Sequence record: OQ873415.1
DNA length: 64,000 nt
Origin: Escherichia phage PECP20
Strand: one strand, 5' to 3'
Shown here: piece after piece, positions 18,887-27,394 of the stretch
Numbering within the stretch: the first letter of the stretch is position 1
How the letters are laid out: every line of letters begins with the position of its first letter
Translations under genes and position numbers: made by a program
Notes under the pieces: model-generated
The model's database searches: none
What the model was told of the DNA's origin: nothing
The model's input: only the letters and a program-made list of their open reading frames with translations

Positions 18887-19127
18887 ATCGGTCCCATGAT
18901 TTGGCCATCAATTCGGACATAAATTCTTCAATGCGCGTTTCTTTAGATGGACTTTCACTATTAGAGACCGCAAGTTTGTAATCTGCAATAGGACAGAACA
19001 TATCAAGGTCCATATTAAGATCGTCTTTGATTTTTTCTTCTGACACATCTTTATCATACGTGTACAGATAACTATCGCATGATTCTGATTTAATGTAAAT
19101 TGCTATACTCATCTCAAATTCCTGCAT
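18876..19127 (-). CDS. hypothetical protein, 83 aa
   Basis: ORF track. Confidence 0.5.
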   Translation of the reverse strand: MQEFEMSIAIYIKSESCDSYLYTYDKDVSEEKIKDDLNMDLDMFCPIADYKLAVSNSESPSKETRIEEFMSELMAKSWDRYDE

Positions 19128-19600
19128 TCGGTAATAAAACGTTCAACTTCGTTATTCTTGGCCTTTATCTTGTCTTTACGTTCCTGTAAACTACTTTTAA
19201 CAAGATTAATAATGATGGCGGCGGTACCGCCGCCAATGATGCCACCAACAACACTTACGATACTAGATGCTAATAAGATAGCAATAATATCAACAAAACC
19301 GAAAGAACTCACCTTAGTACTGAAAAACCATACCGACGGTACAAATATAATCCATCCTGTTATCCATTGGCACTTATTGAAAAACTTTTCAAGCTCAGCT
19401 TGAGTTGTTCGTATTACTTCATCGATAGGTTGATATCCATTAATGTATCTGTTCACGATAATACCTGCTGGCTGGTCGATTTTAAATTCTTGGCAAATAC
19501 GTTTCACTAAGTAGGATGGACATCCTGTCCAATCCACTGAATAGTACGAAATACCTTCGTTGCCATCGTCTATATTAGACCAATATGTTTTGTTAATCAT
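19109..19600 (-). CDS. hypothetical membrane protein, 163 aa
   Basis: ORF track; central hydrophobic helices; C-terminal ERFITECR. Confidence 0.55.
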   Translation of the reverse strand: MINKTYWSNIDDGNEGISYYSVDWTGCPSYLVKRICQEFKIDQPAGIIVNRYINGYQPIDEVIRTTQAELEKFFNKCQWITGWIIFVPSVWFFSTKVSSFGFVDIIAILLASSIVSVVGGIIGGGTAAIIINLVKSSLQERKDKIKAKNNEVERFITECRNLR

Positions 19601-20286
19601 TACCAGCCTTCCATAGGGAATTCCAGATAAACTTGAGCATTGACACGAATTTCATTGGTAATCTTTTTAACTCGGTCTGTATTACGAGATACACGTCCGA
19701 ACCAACGCCATCCATTACTAATTGCACGAGAACCAGTGTGCCATGTTTGCCAATCAAACTGAAGAAGAGTACGGTCCGGAGCTTCCCATTTCTCTAGTTC
19801 ACCTTTTTCAATTTTTTCGAGGACTTCTTTGTGCCACTGGCGATAGATAAGTTCGCCATCAGGAATCTGACTGAACTCTGCAGTTCCTGTTGCAAAATGA
19901 GTAGGACACACATCAGCGTTAACAAGACCAAGAATATGTTCAGACAAATAGCGAGGATTGTCATAGTCAGGTTGTCCTGCAGTAATAAAATGTTGACCAA
20001 CCGGAATATCCGGGCGTGGTACGTCATCATGGTGATAACCAGGAATAGCAGGATACCAACCAGGCATCAGCATATGGACTCGTGAATCAAATACTACATC
20101 TGAGTCTTTCCAATCGTCAGGGAGATTTTGGATAAAGCTACGAGTAATTGGACCGCCGTTATCAAAAGCAAAATTCAAATCGCAATTAAAGAACATAGGC
20201 TCGTTTTTAATCTGGTCATTTTTAATCGCATGAGCAAAACCACCTACTGCACGAGCTTGACTATTAAACACTTTAGAACTATTCAT
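19600..20286 (-). CDS. hypothetical protein, 228 aa, His/Asp-rich
   Basis: ORF track; segments GYHHDDVP and CPTHFATG suggest a metal site, unverified. Confidence 0.6.
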   Translation of the reverse strand: MNSSKVFNSQARAVGGFAHAIKNDQIKNEPMFFNCDLNFAFDNGGPITRSFIQNLPDDWKDSDVVFDSRVHMLMPGWYPAIPGYHHDDVPRPDIPVGQHFITAGQPDYDNPRYLSEHILGLVNADVCPTHFATGTAEFSQIPDGELIYRQWHKEVLEKIEKGELEKWEAPDRTLLQFDWQTWHTGSRAISNGWRWFGRVSRNTDRVKKITNEIRVNAQVYLEFPMEGW

Positions 20287-20287
20287 A

Positions 20288-20593
20288 TTATTTTCCTCGA
20301 CATTCTTTAATGAAATTTTCTAGATTGGTAGATTCAATAGCTTTTTTACGAGCTTCTGCGTGTTCTTCTTCAGACAATTTACATTTATAATTGACCCAGA
20401 CGTTATGGTCGAAACTAGTCGTGGCATATAATAACAATGCTCCAACGAATAGCAAAAACGGCGATAAGAATACAAAACCAGGAACACCATCCATACTGTA
20501 AGCCTTTTGTAATACTGCAACAGAAAGAGCTGCGTAAAAAAGTGATACAAATATTGTTAAAAGACCAATTCGGTTGGTTTCGCCTAATTTCAT
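20288..20593 (-). CDS. hypothetical membrane protein, 101 aa
   Basis: ORF track; two hydrophobic helices; C-terminal ENFIKECR. Confidence 0.55.
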   Translation of the reverse strand: MKLGETNRIGLLTIFVSLFYAALSVAVLQKAYSMDGVPGFVFLSPFLLFVGALLLYATTSFDHNVWVNYKCKLSEEEHAEARKKAIESTNLENFIKECRGK

Positions 20594-20932: not shown

Positions 20933-21889
20933 TTATTTGAAAGGTTTTACCATATGAAAGTTTTGTTTGAAACGCTTGACGTAATCGTCGTGTCCTAAGC
21001 TTTGGTACATACTTACTACTTTGTTATAATTTTCCCAAGCGAACTCACGGAACCATCCTGATGTGATTGATGTACAGACCTTTTCAAGGGCCATCATAAA
21101 ACTATCACGTGGATGGATTTCAAAGTTATTAGGAATCTGAGAACGTTCTAACGCTAGTACACATGATTCTTCGTATACGCCGGCCAATTTGACCATTTCT
21201 GGTAATGATTCGAACTTCTCGCGTGAGGTCATGACTTCAGAACCATCTTTCATATAAAATGTATACGCTGGACGGTCTGTTAGTGCAATGGCTTCATGAA
21301 TAGTATCATGGTCATATGTATAGATGTCATCTTTAAAGAACGCACTTTTAGAAGTGTCAAGAACTGGGTGAGCATAATTCAAGGTTTCTTTCTGGCGTTT
21401 CAGCATAATTTCAGTAAGTTCATCGTTCAGTGTAACACCTTTACCACGAAGATACTGAATATGGTTCATAGTCTTTAAAAAGAATGGATTATTTTTCTTG
21501 AAACGATGAGACATCTTAATTGCAAGACATATCTCAGGAGTTGCCCAGTAAAACCCGTTCAAACGGTCTTTAGTCAAATTTTTCTTGGCGTATTTTAAAA
21601 GGTCATAAGAAGACGTGAAATCTTCAGGAGTGAGTTCACCGACTAGTTCGCGAACGTTAGTGATAGCCGGAACGATGTATGCTTCAAAATGAGTTTCGCG
21701 TCCATTATGGAAGCATTTGAAAACTTGGACATCAGGGTTATCTTGGTGAACATATACACCCATCATTTGATTTTTGAATGCATTCCAAGAACCTTGGTCC
21801 GCAATAAAGTCCCAATCACTATTTTTAATAGCGCTAGAATCAATAAGACCGTGATAGTGAAGTGCACGAGAACCAATAACTAACATCAT
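20933..21889 (-). CDS. hypothetical protein, 318 aa, possible degenerate nucleotidyltransferase-like N-terminus
   Basis: ORF track; N-terminal LVIGSRALHYHG...SDWDF loosely resembles an NTase GS...DxD motif. Confidence 0.65.
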   Translation of the reverse strand: MMLVIGSRALHYHGLIDSSAIKNSDWDFIADQGSWNAFKNQMMGVYVHQDNPDVQVFKCFHNGRETHFEAYIVPAITNVRELVGELTPEDFTSSYDLLKYAKKNLTKDRLNGFYWATPEICLAIKMSHRFKKNNPFFLKTMNHIQYLRGKGVTLNDELTEIMLKRQKETLNYAHPVLDTSKSAFFKDDIYTYDHDTIHEAIALTDRPAYTFYMKDGSEVMTSREKFESLPEMVKLAGVYEESCVLALERSQIPNNFEIHPRDSFMMALEKVCTSITSGWFREFAWENYNKVVSMYQSLGHDDYVKRFKQNFHMVKPFK

Positions 21890-21917: not shown

Positions 21918-22169
21918 TTAAATTTCACGACATGCGATATTATATTCATCCCAGAGGTCATCATGTGAAGCCTCTACCAATGGAACGATTGTACCGTTTA
22001 TGTCTTCATTATAAGGGCAAATTGTACAGTGCGCATCTTCGAATCGGATGCCTTTGTGTTCAGATTTTTTATAACGCATATCGAATATCTTTGCAAACTT
22101 TTCACGAGTAATGGTTTTACCAACCACTTTGGTTCCGATACTTTCGTAATAAATCATTGTGGACTCCAT
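21918..22169 (-). CDS. hypothetical protein, 83 aa
   Basis: ORF track; promoter cassette upstream. Confidence 0.55.
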   Translation of the reverse strand: MESTMIYYESIGTKVVGKTITREKFAKIFDMRYKKSEHKGIRFEDAHCTICPYNEDINGTIVPLVEASHDDLWDEYNIACREI

Positions 22170-22219: not shown

Positions 22220-22417
22220 TTAGCAAGAATAACTAGATGATACCCAGCCTTGAACAGTGATACTATTGTGGGATAATGAGATCGCGTCCTGGAGATTCAG
22301 ACCTGCGTTATCTTCAATCCATAATGTAACTTCTTCGCGTTCTTCTGCTGCAATTTGGAACAGGTTTTCCAGAGCAGCTACTGCCGTACGTACAGCACAA
22401 TCTAATTCACGAGACAT
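22220..22417 (-). CDS. small protein, 65 aa, WxSSSxxC C-terminal family
   Basis: Ends GWVSSSYSC; tandem with two paralogs. Confidence 0.55.
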   Translation of the reverse strand: MSRELDCAVRTAVAALENLFQIAAEEREEVTLWIEDNAGLNLQDAISLSHNSITVQGWVSSSYSC

Positions 22418-22426
22418 ATTGTTTCC

Positions 22427-22654
22427 TTAGCAAGACATAGAGGAAGAGAACCAGAAACCTTTGCCTTCCGGAATTCCATAATCGTTACGGATCCAGCCAT
22501 ATTCATCATATTCTGAACTGGTCGCCGGAATATATCGGTTAAGTCCTTCAGCATACACATGAAAATACTCGCCGGTTTTATCAGCTAATTGTTGGCCTTC
22601 ACAGATTAGTGCTCGAATTTGGTCTTCAATTTCTTTAACGGTTTTAGTGGTCAT
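22427..22654 (-). CDS. small protein, 75 aa, WxSSSxxC C-terminal family
   Basis: Ends GFWFSSSMSC. Confidence 0.55.
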   Translation of the reverse strand: MTTKTVKEIEDQIRALICEGQQLADKTGEYFHVYAEGLNRYIPATSSEYDEYGWIRNDYGIPEGKGFWFSSSMSC

Positions 22655-22663
22655 TTTATTTCC

Positions 22664-22957
22664 TTAACATATTTGAGAAGAGGAGATCCATACACCGGAA
22701 GTAACGATACCATTTTCGTCAACTTCACCGCCATAGTTTTCAATTTCATCGCGCATCCAGCGACTACATTCATAACCAACAGGATAGTAAGTACGACCTG
22801 AACCATATTCACCTACATCAAATGAAACACCATACTTATCTGCGATAATAGTAGCTTCATTCTCGATATGGTCTTGAGCACGAAGAAGTTTGCTGATTGC
22901 TTCTTCTGCAGATTTAGCGTCATTGTATTCAGGGATTACGATTTCAATTTTACTCAT
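22664..22957 (-). CDS. small protein, 97 aa, WxSSSxxC C-terminal family
   Basis: Ends GVWISSSQIC. Confidence 0.55.
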   Translation of the reverse strand: MSKIEIVIPEYNDAKSAEEAISKLLRAQDHIENEATIIADKYGVSFDVGEYGSGRTYYPVGYECSRWMRDEIENYGGEVDENGIVTSGVWISSSQIC

Positions 22958-23313
22958 TTTCTACATTCCTTAATAAAGTTTTCGATTGTTTCATTTTCAC
23001 GTTTAGCTAGGAGTTCATTATAACTAATCATTTGAGAAGCGTAAACCTTTTTATTTTTCTTGTTGTGGTTTATAAAATCGTAGTAAAAATAGACTACAGT
23101 ACAAAATGATGCGATGGATGCAAAGGCTTGGGTATACCGTAAGTCCTGCCATTGGTCTGTGAATCCACCAGTGTTCCCTATAAATCCTAACACAACGCCG
23201 TCAATAAGAAATCCAACTAATCCAAAGGCAAATCCCATGCCAATACTCATAATAAAAATTAGAATGTTCTCACCAAGAGAAGGCCATACGGTTAAGAGTT
23301 GAGGCTTTTGCAT
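22954..23313 (-). CDS. hypothetical membrane protein, 119 aa
   Basis: ORF track; hydrophobic helices; C-terminal ENFIKECRK. Confidence 0.55.
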   Translation of the reverse strand: MQKPQLLTVWPSLGENILIFIMSIGMGFAFGLVGFLIDGVVLGFIGNTGGFTDQWQDLRYTQAFASIASFCTVVYFYYDFINHNKKNKKVYASQMISYNELLAKRENETIENFIKECRK

Positions 23314-23687
23314 CTTATTTCCTTAACGAATTCCATAGCTTCTTCATATTCATACTTTTTAACAGCTTCATCATACTGAGCTTGGGCTTTTGCGCACTGA
23401 ACTTTCCATTCTCTTAATCGGGCTCTGTGATGACGGCCTTGGTGCCAATATCCTACCCAATTAATAGGCATTAATAAAAACGGTACAATAAGTGGTGCGA
23501 CGAACATTAATGAAAATGCTGCATCAGACGATATAACTTCACTAGAATCTAAAACAGCTCCTATAATCATAAAGATTAAAAATGCTAAAGCTAAAATAGG
23601 ACCAAATAATACTTCATACGGGATTAATTTACGTTTGTATTCGTAGGCCCAGGGCTTACTTGGCATGTATAGGGTTGGCTTTGACAT
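23292..23687 (-). CDS. hypothetical membrane protein, about 131 aa
   Basis: Track ORF trimmed to ATG (MSKPTLYM...); hydrophobic helices. Confidence 0.55.
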   Translation of the reverse strand: MSKPTLYMPSKPWAYEYKRKLIPYEVLFGPILALAFLIFMIIGAVLDSSEVISSDAAFSLMFVAPLIVPFLLMPINWVGYWHQGRHHRARLREWKVQCAKAQAQYDEAVKKYEYEEAMEFVKEIRCKSLNS

Positions 23688-24279
23688 ATTCTCTACATTC
23701 CATAATAAATTGCTCAAGGATTAAATTGTTAGTGAAATTAGGACTAACAACCATAGTTTCATAAAGCGCATCAATAGCACTTAAAGCATCAACTCTTTTA
23801 AGCAAAGGCTTGCCTTCATACATAGTTTCAGAATCGATGATTAACGTAAAGTAATATTTTTTATTATCGACTAGAACTTCTGTATCGATATAAAACATAT
23901 TAGACCTCAGAAGCTTATCTCTAAAACCATAATAATCTTCAGAGCGTTCGCTGATATATTCCCATTCAGTGTTTAAACAACAAACAGACCACGTAGGAGC
24001 AACGAAATCAGTGAATCTAATATCATGGTCTGCAACTAGTTTAGCAATAGCTCCGATATCATGAATCATAATACCTGGGGCTAATAAAGATTTTCTGCTA
24101 TGGCTAGCCGTTTTCTCGGTGGTCTCATAAGAAGACGACCAGTACCATTTACGTCCGGTTGCAACATATCGTAATGAATCAACTAAAGACGTAGGTGGAT
24201 TTACCTTATCTCGGAACTCTTCGAACATTGAGTCAATATCATTATTTTGGTTTCGCATGTTAGCTCCTTTATTATCCAA
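23656..24279 (-). CDS. hypothetical protein, 207 aa
   Basis: ORF track; C-terminal EQFIMECRE. Confidence 0.6.
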   Translation of the reverse strand: MDNKGANMRNQNNDIDSMFEEFRDKVNPPTSLVDSLRYVATGRKWYWSSSYETTEKTASHSRKSLLAPGIMIHDIGAIAKLVADHDIRFTDFVAPTWSVCCLNTEWEYISERSEDYYGFRDKLLRSNMFYIDTEVLVDNKKYYFTLIIDSETMYEGKPLLKRVDALSAIDALYETMVVSPNFTNNLILEQFIMECREYVKANPIHAK

Positions 24280-27237: not shown

Positions 27238-27314
27238 TGGTCGAGACAGAAGGATTCTAACCTTCAACCTACGGATTAGAAGTCCGTTGCTCCATACAAT
27301 TGAGCTATGCCTCG
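27238..27314 (-). tRNA. tRNA-Arg (anticodon UCU)
   Basis: Hand-folded cloverleaf: acceptor CGAGGCA/TGTCTCG, D-stem GCTC/GAGC, anticodon stem ACGGA/TCCGT with loop CTTCTAA, T-arm GAAGG-TTAGAAT-CCTTC, encoded CCA. Confidence 0.75.
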
Positions 27315-27320
27315 AATATA

Positions 27321-27394
27321 TGGCCCAGACCAGATTCGAACTGGTAACCTTTCCCTTATGAGGGGACTGCTGCTAACCATTGAGCTACAGGGCC
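27321..27394 (-). tRNA. tRNA with CAU anticodon (Ile or Met type)
   Basis: Hand-folded: acceptor GGCCCTG/CTGGGCC (one mismatch), anticodon loop CTCATAA, T-arm ACCAG-TTCGAAT-CTGGT, CCA encoded; D-arm irregular. Confidence 0.55.

Follow-up and report, generated by a model that had tools for sequence, protein, structure and literature searches.

Three consecutive small genes lie on the minus strand of the Escherichia phage PECP20 genome (sequence record OQ873415.1), within the 64,000-nucleotide stretch of DNA that we analyzed as a whole and refer to here as the window. Their products, designated tail proteins A, B, and C, all end in W-x-SSS-x-x-C (Table 1). The preliminary description had reported three neighboring ORFs of 97, 75, and 65 aa with this ending, and all three are indeed present; among the 377 ORFs of at least 50 aa in the window, they are the only ones that end in this way. 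The phage is an RB69-like member of the T4 type (Mosigvirus), 98.7% identical to Escherichia phage LH01, and the tail genes occupy a variable block with lysozyme (e)/nudE on one side and e.5/e.6 and tRNA genes on the other. They are tightly packed, the start codon of the 97-aa gene overlapping the stop of the gene upstream (ATGA), and the stops of the 97-aa and 75-aa genes being followed directly by the GGAAA-N5-ATG of the next gene, so that they appear to be arranged as in an operon. Since a scan for promoters and terminators gave 19 signals, not above the 17.9 expected from shuffled sequence, we make no claim on transcription units.

Table 1. Genes and other features of the window, in order of position.
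Feature	Position	Strand	Description
E-x-F-[IV]-x-E-C-R gene	19109..19651	-	ends ...ERFITECRNLR
E-x-F-[IV]-x-E-C-R gene	20288..20593	-	ends ...ENFIKECRGK
DUF7277+DUF7275 enzyme	20933..21889	-	318 aa; predicted Pol-beta-fold nucleotidyltransferase; proposed partner of the tail proteins
Intervening small ORF; E-x-F-[IV]-x-E-C-R gene	21918..22169	-	79-83 aa; HCTICPYNED..., ends ...EYNIACREI; phrog_3723, E 1.7e-36
Tail protein C	22220..22417	-	65 aa, "65-type"; MSRELDCAVRTA...GWVSSSYSC; tail and stop at 22220-22246
Tail protein B	22427..22654	-	75 aa, "75-type"; ends ...GFWFSSSMSC; tail and stop at 22427-22453
Tail protein A	22664..22957	-	97 aa, "97-type"; ends ...GVWISSSQIC; tail and stop at 22664-22690
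E-x-F-[IV]-x-E-C-R gene	22954..23313	-	ends ...ENFIKECRK
E-x-F-[IV]-x-E-C-R gene	23292..23717	-	ends ...EFVKEIRCKSLNS
E-x-F-[IV]-x-E-C-R gene	23656..24279	-	ends ...EQFIMECREYVKANPIHAK
tRNA-Arg(tct) and tRNA-Met(cat)	27238..27394	-	~4.3 kb from the tail genes; context only

The three paralogs share approximately 25-35% pairwise identity or less. The 97-aa and 75-aa proteins are full-length homologs (BLASTP E value, 3e-4) and both match phrog_899 (E values of 1.4e-22 and 5.8e-15, respectively); the likeness of the 65-aa protein to the other two is detectable only over its last ~19 residues, and this protein belongs to phrog_4882 (E value, 1.3e-36) and is present in 251 phage records. By their tail, the members form one group, although PHROGs splits them into these two families, for which it gives no function, motif, or link to a nucleotidyltransferase. 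Tail protein A consists of an N-terminal helix, the segments IADKYGVSF and GEYGSGRTYYP, and then the tail, and its orthologs in loci L001 to L005 end in the same tail. Against Pfam, NCBIfam, and PADLOC, the three proteins gave only subthreshold noise. The paralogs are too diverged for a meaningful dN/dS, and selection on the motif was judged from codon usage and conservation across genera.

The family was defined as small acidic proteins with a C-terminal G-x-W-x-[S/A/T/N]-S-S-x-x-C-stop, a definition that covers tail proteins A, B, and C. From 44 further viral loci, we gathered 118 distinct members of 61 to 188 aa, which are very acidic (mean net charge, -8.6). While the tail G-x-W-x-S-S-S-x-x-C-stop is essentially fixed, identity among the bodies has fallen to about 20%, and in an alignment of 24 sequences (mean column identity, 18%), no residues other than the Trp, a single Ser, and the Cys at the end are invariant. 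Counting back from the stop in the 86 proteins with Trp at -8, G is the commonest residue at -10 (49/86), G, V, or A at -9, and V at -7; W (-8), S (-5), and C (-1) are found in 100%, S in 97% at -4 and 79% at -6, and positions -3 and -2 accept any residue. A shorter variant, W-x-x-S-S-C, was also seen. Runs of three to five tandem genes with the same ending occur in VR25, Edwardsiella phage PEi20, Klebsiella phage Marfa, JK45, and the unrelated Pseudomonas Otagovirus PHB09.

The codons of the Ser triplet differ among the three genes of the window (TCC TCT TCT in the 97-aa gene, TCT TCC TCT in the 75-aa gene, and TCA TCT AGT in the 65-aa gene), an observation from which it had been proposed at the outset that the motif is held at the protein level. 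The wider comparison strongly supports this proposal. Among 63 distinct tail DNAs, not one departs from the W, the S at -5, or the terminal C (100% conservation), and codons of both the TCN and the AGY type are used for Ser at -5 and -4, which indicates selection on the protein. The motif might also have been missing from related phages; instead, it is kept in orthologs and paralogs of at least 10 phage genera while the bodies diverge.

Database searches with such short proteins recovered few relatives. Against 5.8 billion sequences, a word-indexed search with the 97-aa protein gave 5 close relatives and a profile of 24 sequences gave 18, a low yield due to E values that are too strict for proteins of 65 to 100 aa in a collection of this size. 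An exhaustive search of 1.84 billion cluster representatives with the "97-type" profile found 38 clusters at 50% identity, and every full-length one of them keeps W-x-SSS-x-x-C. A profile of 24 proteins compared with all PDB chains produced only spurious matches to coiled-coil and designed proteins (E values of 0.036 or above). The terminal Cys is the sole Cys in 41 of the 118 members, so that a conserved role of this residue in an internal disulfide or a zinc site is ruled out.

Two relatives carry the motif in other positions. A "74-type" paralog (L003 4238-4462, L004 3762-3992, L005 3743-3967, and L033 5700-5954; also in L103, L104, and L109) has it twice, as an internal DW[LN]NSSCYGEE and a terminal [IV]W-x-[PS]-SSC. 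In an Otagovirus-type relative (L006 3540-3953; L037/L038), only an internal ...LW-x-x-SG-x-C-x-WEES... is found and the protein ends in YDYGWDL.

The middle gene of the three has a history of its own. In tblastn searches, the 75-aa protein is matched at 100% only in phage LH01, the next best match being 84% in Gaprivervirus VR25; apart from LH01, the gene itself is closest to that of another genus, whereas its flanks are ~96% identical to those of Mosigviruses. Most of the other Mosigviruses among the matches listed have a different, 90-aa paralog in the middle slot (...GGWVASSHTC; for example, L001 6528-6800). The 88% coverage gap in the other Mosigviruses, together with the different middle gene of L001, identifies this as a swap of the middle gene, and we therefore conclude that the paralogs are exchanged as cassettes. 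The small ORF between the tail genes and the gene of the 318-aa protein is syntenic in this position across T4-like phages (orthologs at L001 6019-6258, L003 5098-5334, and L004 4776-5006).

In all the loci that we first examined, the tail cluster lies just upstream of a gene that is on its own strand and codes for a DUF7277+DUF7275 protein of ~320 aa; in the window, the distance is 331 nt, with one ORF between. When viral loci were retrieved by the enzyme alone, using the enzyme alignment, one to five tail genes accompanied it on its strand in 42 of the 44 loci obtained, nearly all of them immediately upstream (in L047, two additional tail genes overlap the enzyme region or follow closely behind it). 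The motif is present in 126 of the 591 same-strand ORFs that end within 3 kb upstream of the enzyme in these 44 loci, compared with 3 of the 4329 ORFs elsewhere in them and none of the 2751 ORFs on the opposite strand, and chance is therefore excluded. Among prokaryotes, 185,579 species genomes yielded five loci, all on contigs of metagenome-assembled genomes (MAGs), and all five have tail genes upstream of the enzyme.

The reverse search led to the same genes. Searched with a degenerate DNA pattern that encodes G-x-W-[VI]-S-S-S-x-x-C-TAA, 2.9 million viral contigs gave 23 matching stretches, every one of them in a contig that carries the enzyme; two of these contigs were new, and in both, the enzyme gene follows at once. 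With a profile of the tail proteins built from a subfamily alignment, we recovered a 371-kb jumbo-phage contig and one other, each with the enzyme directly downstream. The linkage is found in phage groups that are unrelated to one another, namely, Straboviridae, Otagovirus, Phapecoctavirus, Menderavirus, and Shandongvirus, as well as in environmental contigs. Tail genes adjoin the enzyme gene in Phapecoctavirus ESCO5 (three), Aeromonas phage 31.2 and Acinetobacter phage Apostate (two each), Shewanella phage Thanatos-2 (one), and Pseudoalteromonas phage H101 (one, degenerate, with WYESRC), and in L046, L049, L054, and L100 a tail gene abuts or overlaps it. T4-like phages have one to three small, unrelated genes between the two, and Stenotrophomonas phage Mendera has its two or three tail genes downstream. 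The enzyme was found in 733 of 50,697 GenBank phage records and in 2417 protein clusters. It occurs without tail genes in L027, L050, and the actinophages Muntaha and Aphelion, which code for distant homologs; among all loci where this could be checked, no tail gene was found without the enzyme. In L027 (4615-5567; IMGVR_UViG_650627040_000001, T4-like), seven tRNA genes and no tail gene lie just upstream of the enzyme.

The 318-aa protein matches only DUF7277 and DUF7275 in Pfam and is 44% identical between the window phage and Otagovirus PHB09. A profile search of its sequence against the PDB gave no match. An AlphaFold model from a single sequence reached a pLDDT of only 35.8, and we used instead a model based on an alignment of 63 sequences (pLDDT, 90.7; pTM, 0.85). 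In fold comparisons, this model scored 10.0 with the toxin MenT1, 8.3 with both ANT(2'') and TglT/MenT3, 7.5 with MenT4, 7.3 with each of the putative nucleotidyltransferases TM1012 and 4ok0 (Helicobacter pylori), and 6.7 with LnuA, and the predicted fold is bi-lobed as in MenT. Residues G6-S7, D25-x-D27, and E69 are invariant in the 63 sequences; G-S...D-x-D...E is the signature of Pol-beta nucleotidyltransferases (motifs I/II and the third carboxylate). As for MenT motifs III/IV (K189/D211 in MenT3), by our reading of the alignment, K125 is invariant in the phage enzyme, but there is no invariant Asp at the MenT spacing. Since the fold is MenT-like and Pfam gave no match to DUF1814 at an E value of 1 or lower, we call the enzyme MenT-like in fold rather than a MenT. 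Enzymes of the MenT, AbiEii, and ANT types transfer nucleotides to hydroxyls, such as the tRNA 3'-OH or an aminoglycoside OH.

Genes for tRNAs are located within ~6 kb of the enzyme in 24 of 61 loci, and in Thanatos-2 (L109 4004-5109), the same pair as in the window, tRNA-Arg(tct) and tRNA-Met(cat), lies immediately downstream of it. This proximity hints, weakly, at an activity related to tRNA. A tRNA cluster also starts ~1.2 kb downstream of the distant enzyme homolog in Gordonia phage Aphelion. Matches in BFVD include DUF7275 proteins of 508 to 571 aa with the same fold in Sylvanvirus and Satyrvirus (Foldseek E values of 6e-12 to 4e-9); judged by these predicted structures, the enzyme family reaches beyond phages, into giant eukaryotic viruses.

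The preliminary description had suggested that the tail is a shared modification, targeting, or binding site. This was the right kind of idea, although it overlooked the likely partner, the enzyme whose gene near-always accompanies the tail genes. We propose that the tail is a shared handle by which the tail proteins engage the nucleotidyltransferase directly, a reading to which we give about even chances. The module would consist of the enzyme and of small acidic partners that begin with an amphipathic helix, continue in a variable acidic middle part, and end in the tail; all paralogs would engage the one enzyme through the common tail, and the variable bodies would give each of them its own target or specificity. 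The contact might take one of two forms. The tail could sit in the active site as a pseudosubstrate, making the protein an antitoxin-like inhibitor or regulator, possibly as an acidic mimic of the tRNA acceptor end. Alternatively, the tail could be an acceptor that is nucleotidylylated or phosphorylated on its Ser triplet, the thiol or carboxylate of the terminal Cys helping to position it.

This asymmetry, with the enzyme by itself in some phages and the tail genes never by themselves in the loci checked, is the pattern that accessory proteins of the enzyme would leave. Some features fit the handle less well: up to five diverged partners per enzyme are unusual for an antitoxin, T4-like phages have genes between the tail genes and the enzyme, in Mendera the tail genes lie downstream, and part of the motif may belong to a beta-hairpin (see below). 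A bolder extension, in which the Ser triplet serves as acceptor or primer and acidic proteins with an O-linked nucleotide or oligonucleotide tail mimic the tRNA acceptor end and jam or decoy host enzymes or defenses that target tRNA, strikes us as improbable. Other Pol-beta-fold enzymes are established as transferring an NMP to a side-chain hydroxyl of a protein partner, namely, MntA/HepT (in which the partner is encoded beside the enzyme), GlnE, GlnD, and DrrA; however, the acceptors familiar to us in these systems are Tyr, whereas the candidate acceptor of the phage module is a Ser in a C-terminal tail. We know of no Pol-beta-fold enzyme described as nucleotidylylating the Ser hydroxyls of a C-terminal peptide tag.

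The closest known parallel is found in bacterial toxin-antitoxin systems, where a small upstream partner next to a nucleotidyltransferase is a known architecture (MenAT/AbiE). MenT toxins add nucleotides to tRNA 3' ends (PMC7450476, PMC10435456, PMC11375011), and in MenAT1 of Mycobacterium tuberculosis, the 68-aa MenA1, encoded upstream, binds MenT1, blocks its active site, and causes a Thr in that site to become phosphorylated (PMC10435456, PMC11375011). MenA1/MenT1 is a precedent in this enzyme class both for a small partner encoded upstream and for a Ser/Thr hydroxyl as the acceptor of a transfer. The tail proteins resemble MenA1 in being small and encoded upstream of a nucleotidyltransferase, separated from it by one ORF in the window and abutting it in the four loci named above. 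The differences are also clear. The phage module is carried by lytic phages and is essentially absent from cellular genomes (the five MAG contigs among 185,579 species), one to five diverged partners accompany each enzyme, MenA1 lacks the invariant W-x-SSS-x-x-C end, and the phage enzyme has 318 aa with DUF7277/DUF7275, compared with 195 aa in MenT1. Nor did the profile search of PDB chains, a set presumed to include MenA1, reveal any sequence similarity between MenA1 and the tail proteins. The antitoxins of AbiE/DUF1814 systems (AbiEi and MenA3/4) are large COG5340 proteins with DNA-binding domains, unlike the tiny, acidic phage partners.

The alternative that survives best, though we regard it as unlikely, is that the tail proteins are independent effectors of host takeover or antidefense, with a tail that binds a conserved host component or acts as a degradation or localization signal, and that the enzyme merely cotravels in a mobile block of early genes. 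Small, very acidic proteins, tandemly diversified in a hypervariable early-gene block and with one paralog swapped between genera, form a pattern typical of phage inhibitors of host proteins, and the unrelated small genes interspersed among the tail genes would fit as well; the preliminary description had likewise linked such tandem diversification to counterdefense families. However, hitchhiking alone hardly accounts for the lack of any enzyme-less tail gene among the loci checked, order and strand stay the same between phage families that are not related, and also in contigs of jumbo phages and from the environment whose other neighbors differ, and the proteins match no known defense or antidefense family.

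We consider it quite improbable that the tail is mainly structural. In this reading, it would be the last strand of a small fold, with the Trp in the core and the small Ser residues packed, and the terminal Cys would join the subunits of a dimer through a disulfide or a metal; tail proteins and enzyme would function jointly but not touch each other through the tail. A strand-turn pattern (...IVTSG-VWISS and ...ITVQG-WVSS) that leads into the invariant Gly/Trp and a hydrophobic residue resembles a beta-hairpin, and the internal copy of the motif in the "74-type" paralog shows that it can sit within a fold. Part of the motif may be a structural element instead of a free docking peptide, since, as we read the sequence, the W-V-S segment of ...ITVQG-WVSS... 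looks like the second strand of such a hairpin. Against a purely structural role, packing rarely fixes three Ser residues and an exactly C-terminal Cys over bodies of 61 to 188 aa with ~20% identity, the cytoplasm is reducing, and the single-Cys members described above have no second Cys.

A very doubtful proposal is that the proteins are RiPP-like precursors, in which S-x-x-C-COOH is converted to a lanthionine- or aminovinyl-cysteine-type ring, a conversion known in the epidermin family, or receives some other C-terminal modification made by the host. The third Ser stands three residues before a C-terminal Cys of nearly invariant position, which is the spacing of an AviCys ring. Nevertheless, Pfam scans of the neighbors in the window and in L003 to L006 found no dehydratase, cyclase, or HFCD-type decarboxylase, and for want of a tailoring enzyme among these neighbors we rejected the idea; moreover, the "leader" would be a conserved, folded-looking domain of 60 to 180 aa, and the W-x-x-S-S-C variants clash with a fixed ring size. 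Finally, that the motif reflects chance or the copying of a nucleotide block, in ORFs that are not genes, for which only the small ORF size speaks, is refuted to near certainty by the differing Ser codons (TCN versus AGY included), by ORFs intact in 251 and 116 phage records, by ribosome-binding sites and overlapping start and stop codons, and by the absence of the motif from the opposite strand and its near absence from control ORFs.

All components of the module are annotated as hypothetical in the databases, and the literature library that we searched held no paper on DUF7275/DUF7277 or on these tails. What appears to be new is that the module is found in phages, that the partners are multiple, and that they share an invariant W-x-SSS-x-x-C end. 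If the link between tail proteins and enzyme is functional, the number of records with the enzyme would make this a widespread phage module, and lytic phages would carry, together with tagged partners, a toxin-type nucleotidyltransferase so far known from bacterial toxin-antitoxin and abortive-infection systems. It would also provide roles for "hypothetical" genes in hundreds of T4-like, rV5-like, Otagovirus, and jumbo phages, therapeutic candidates included, and one short C-terminal tag would couple many diverged proteins to one enzyme.

A second C-terminal motif, E-x-F-[IV]-x-E-C-R, was observed on minus-strand genes interleaved with the tail genes (Table 1). For at least two of these genes, the annotation in related phages is that of a membrane protein (T4 e.3/e.4-like). 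The same ending flanks the enzyme elsewhere, as ...ENFIRMCRKN and ...FESFIDNCRKARK in L028, ...DAFIQMCRRN in L004, and ...NSFIKYCRGK in L005. The e.4-like membrane protein of JK45 (L001 7450-7845; counterpart in the window at 23292..23717) is labeled "sulfurtransferase" in GenBank, a label that our profile scan does not support. In the e.5-like protein of 207 aa encoded at 23656..24279, an internal GRKWYWSSSYETT at residues ~50 to 62, away from the C terminus, resembles the tail motif (G-x-x-W-x-W-SSS-Y).
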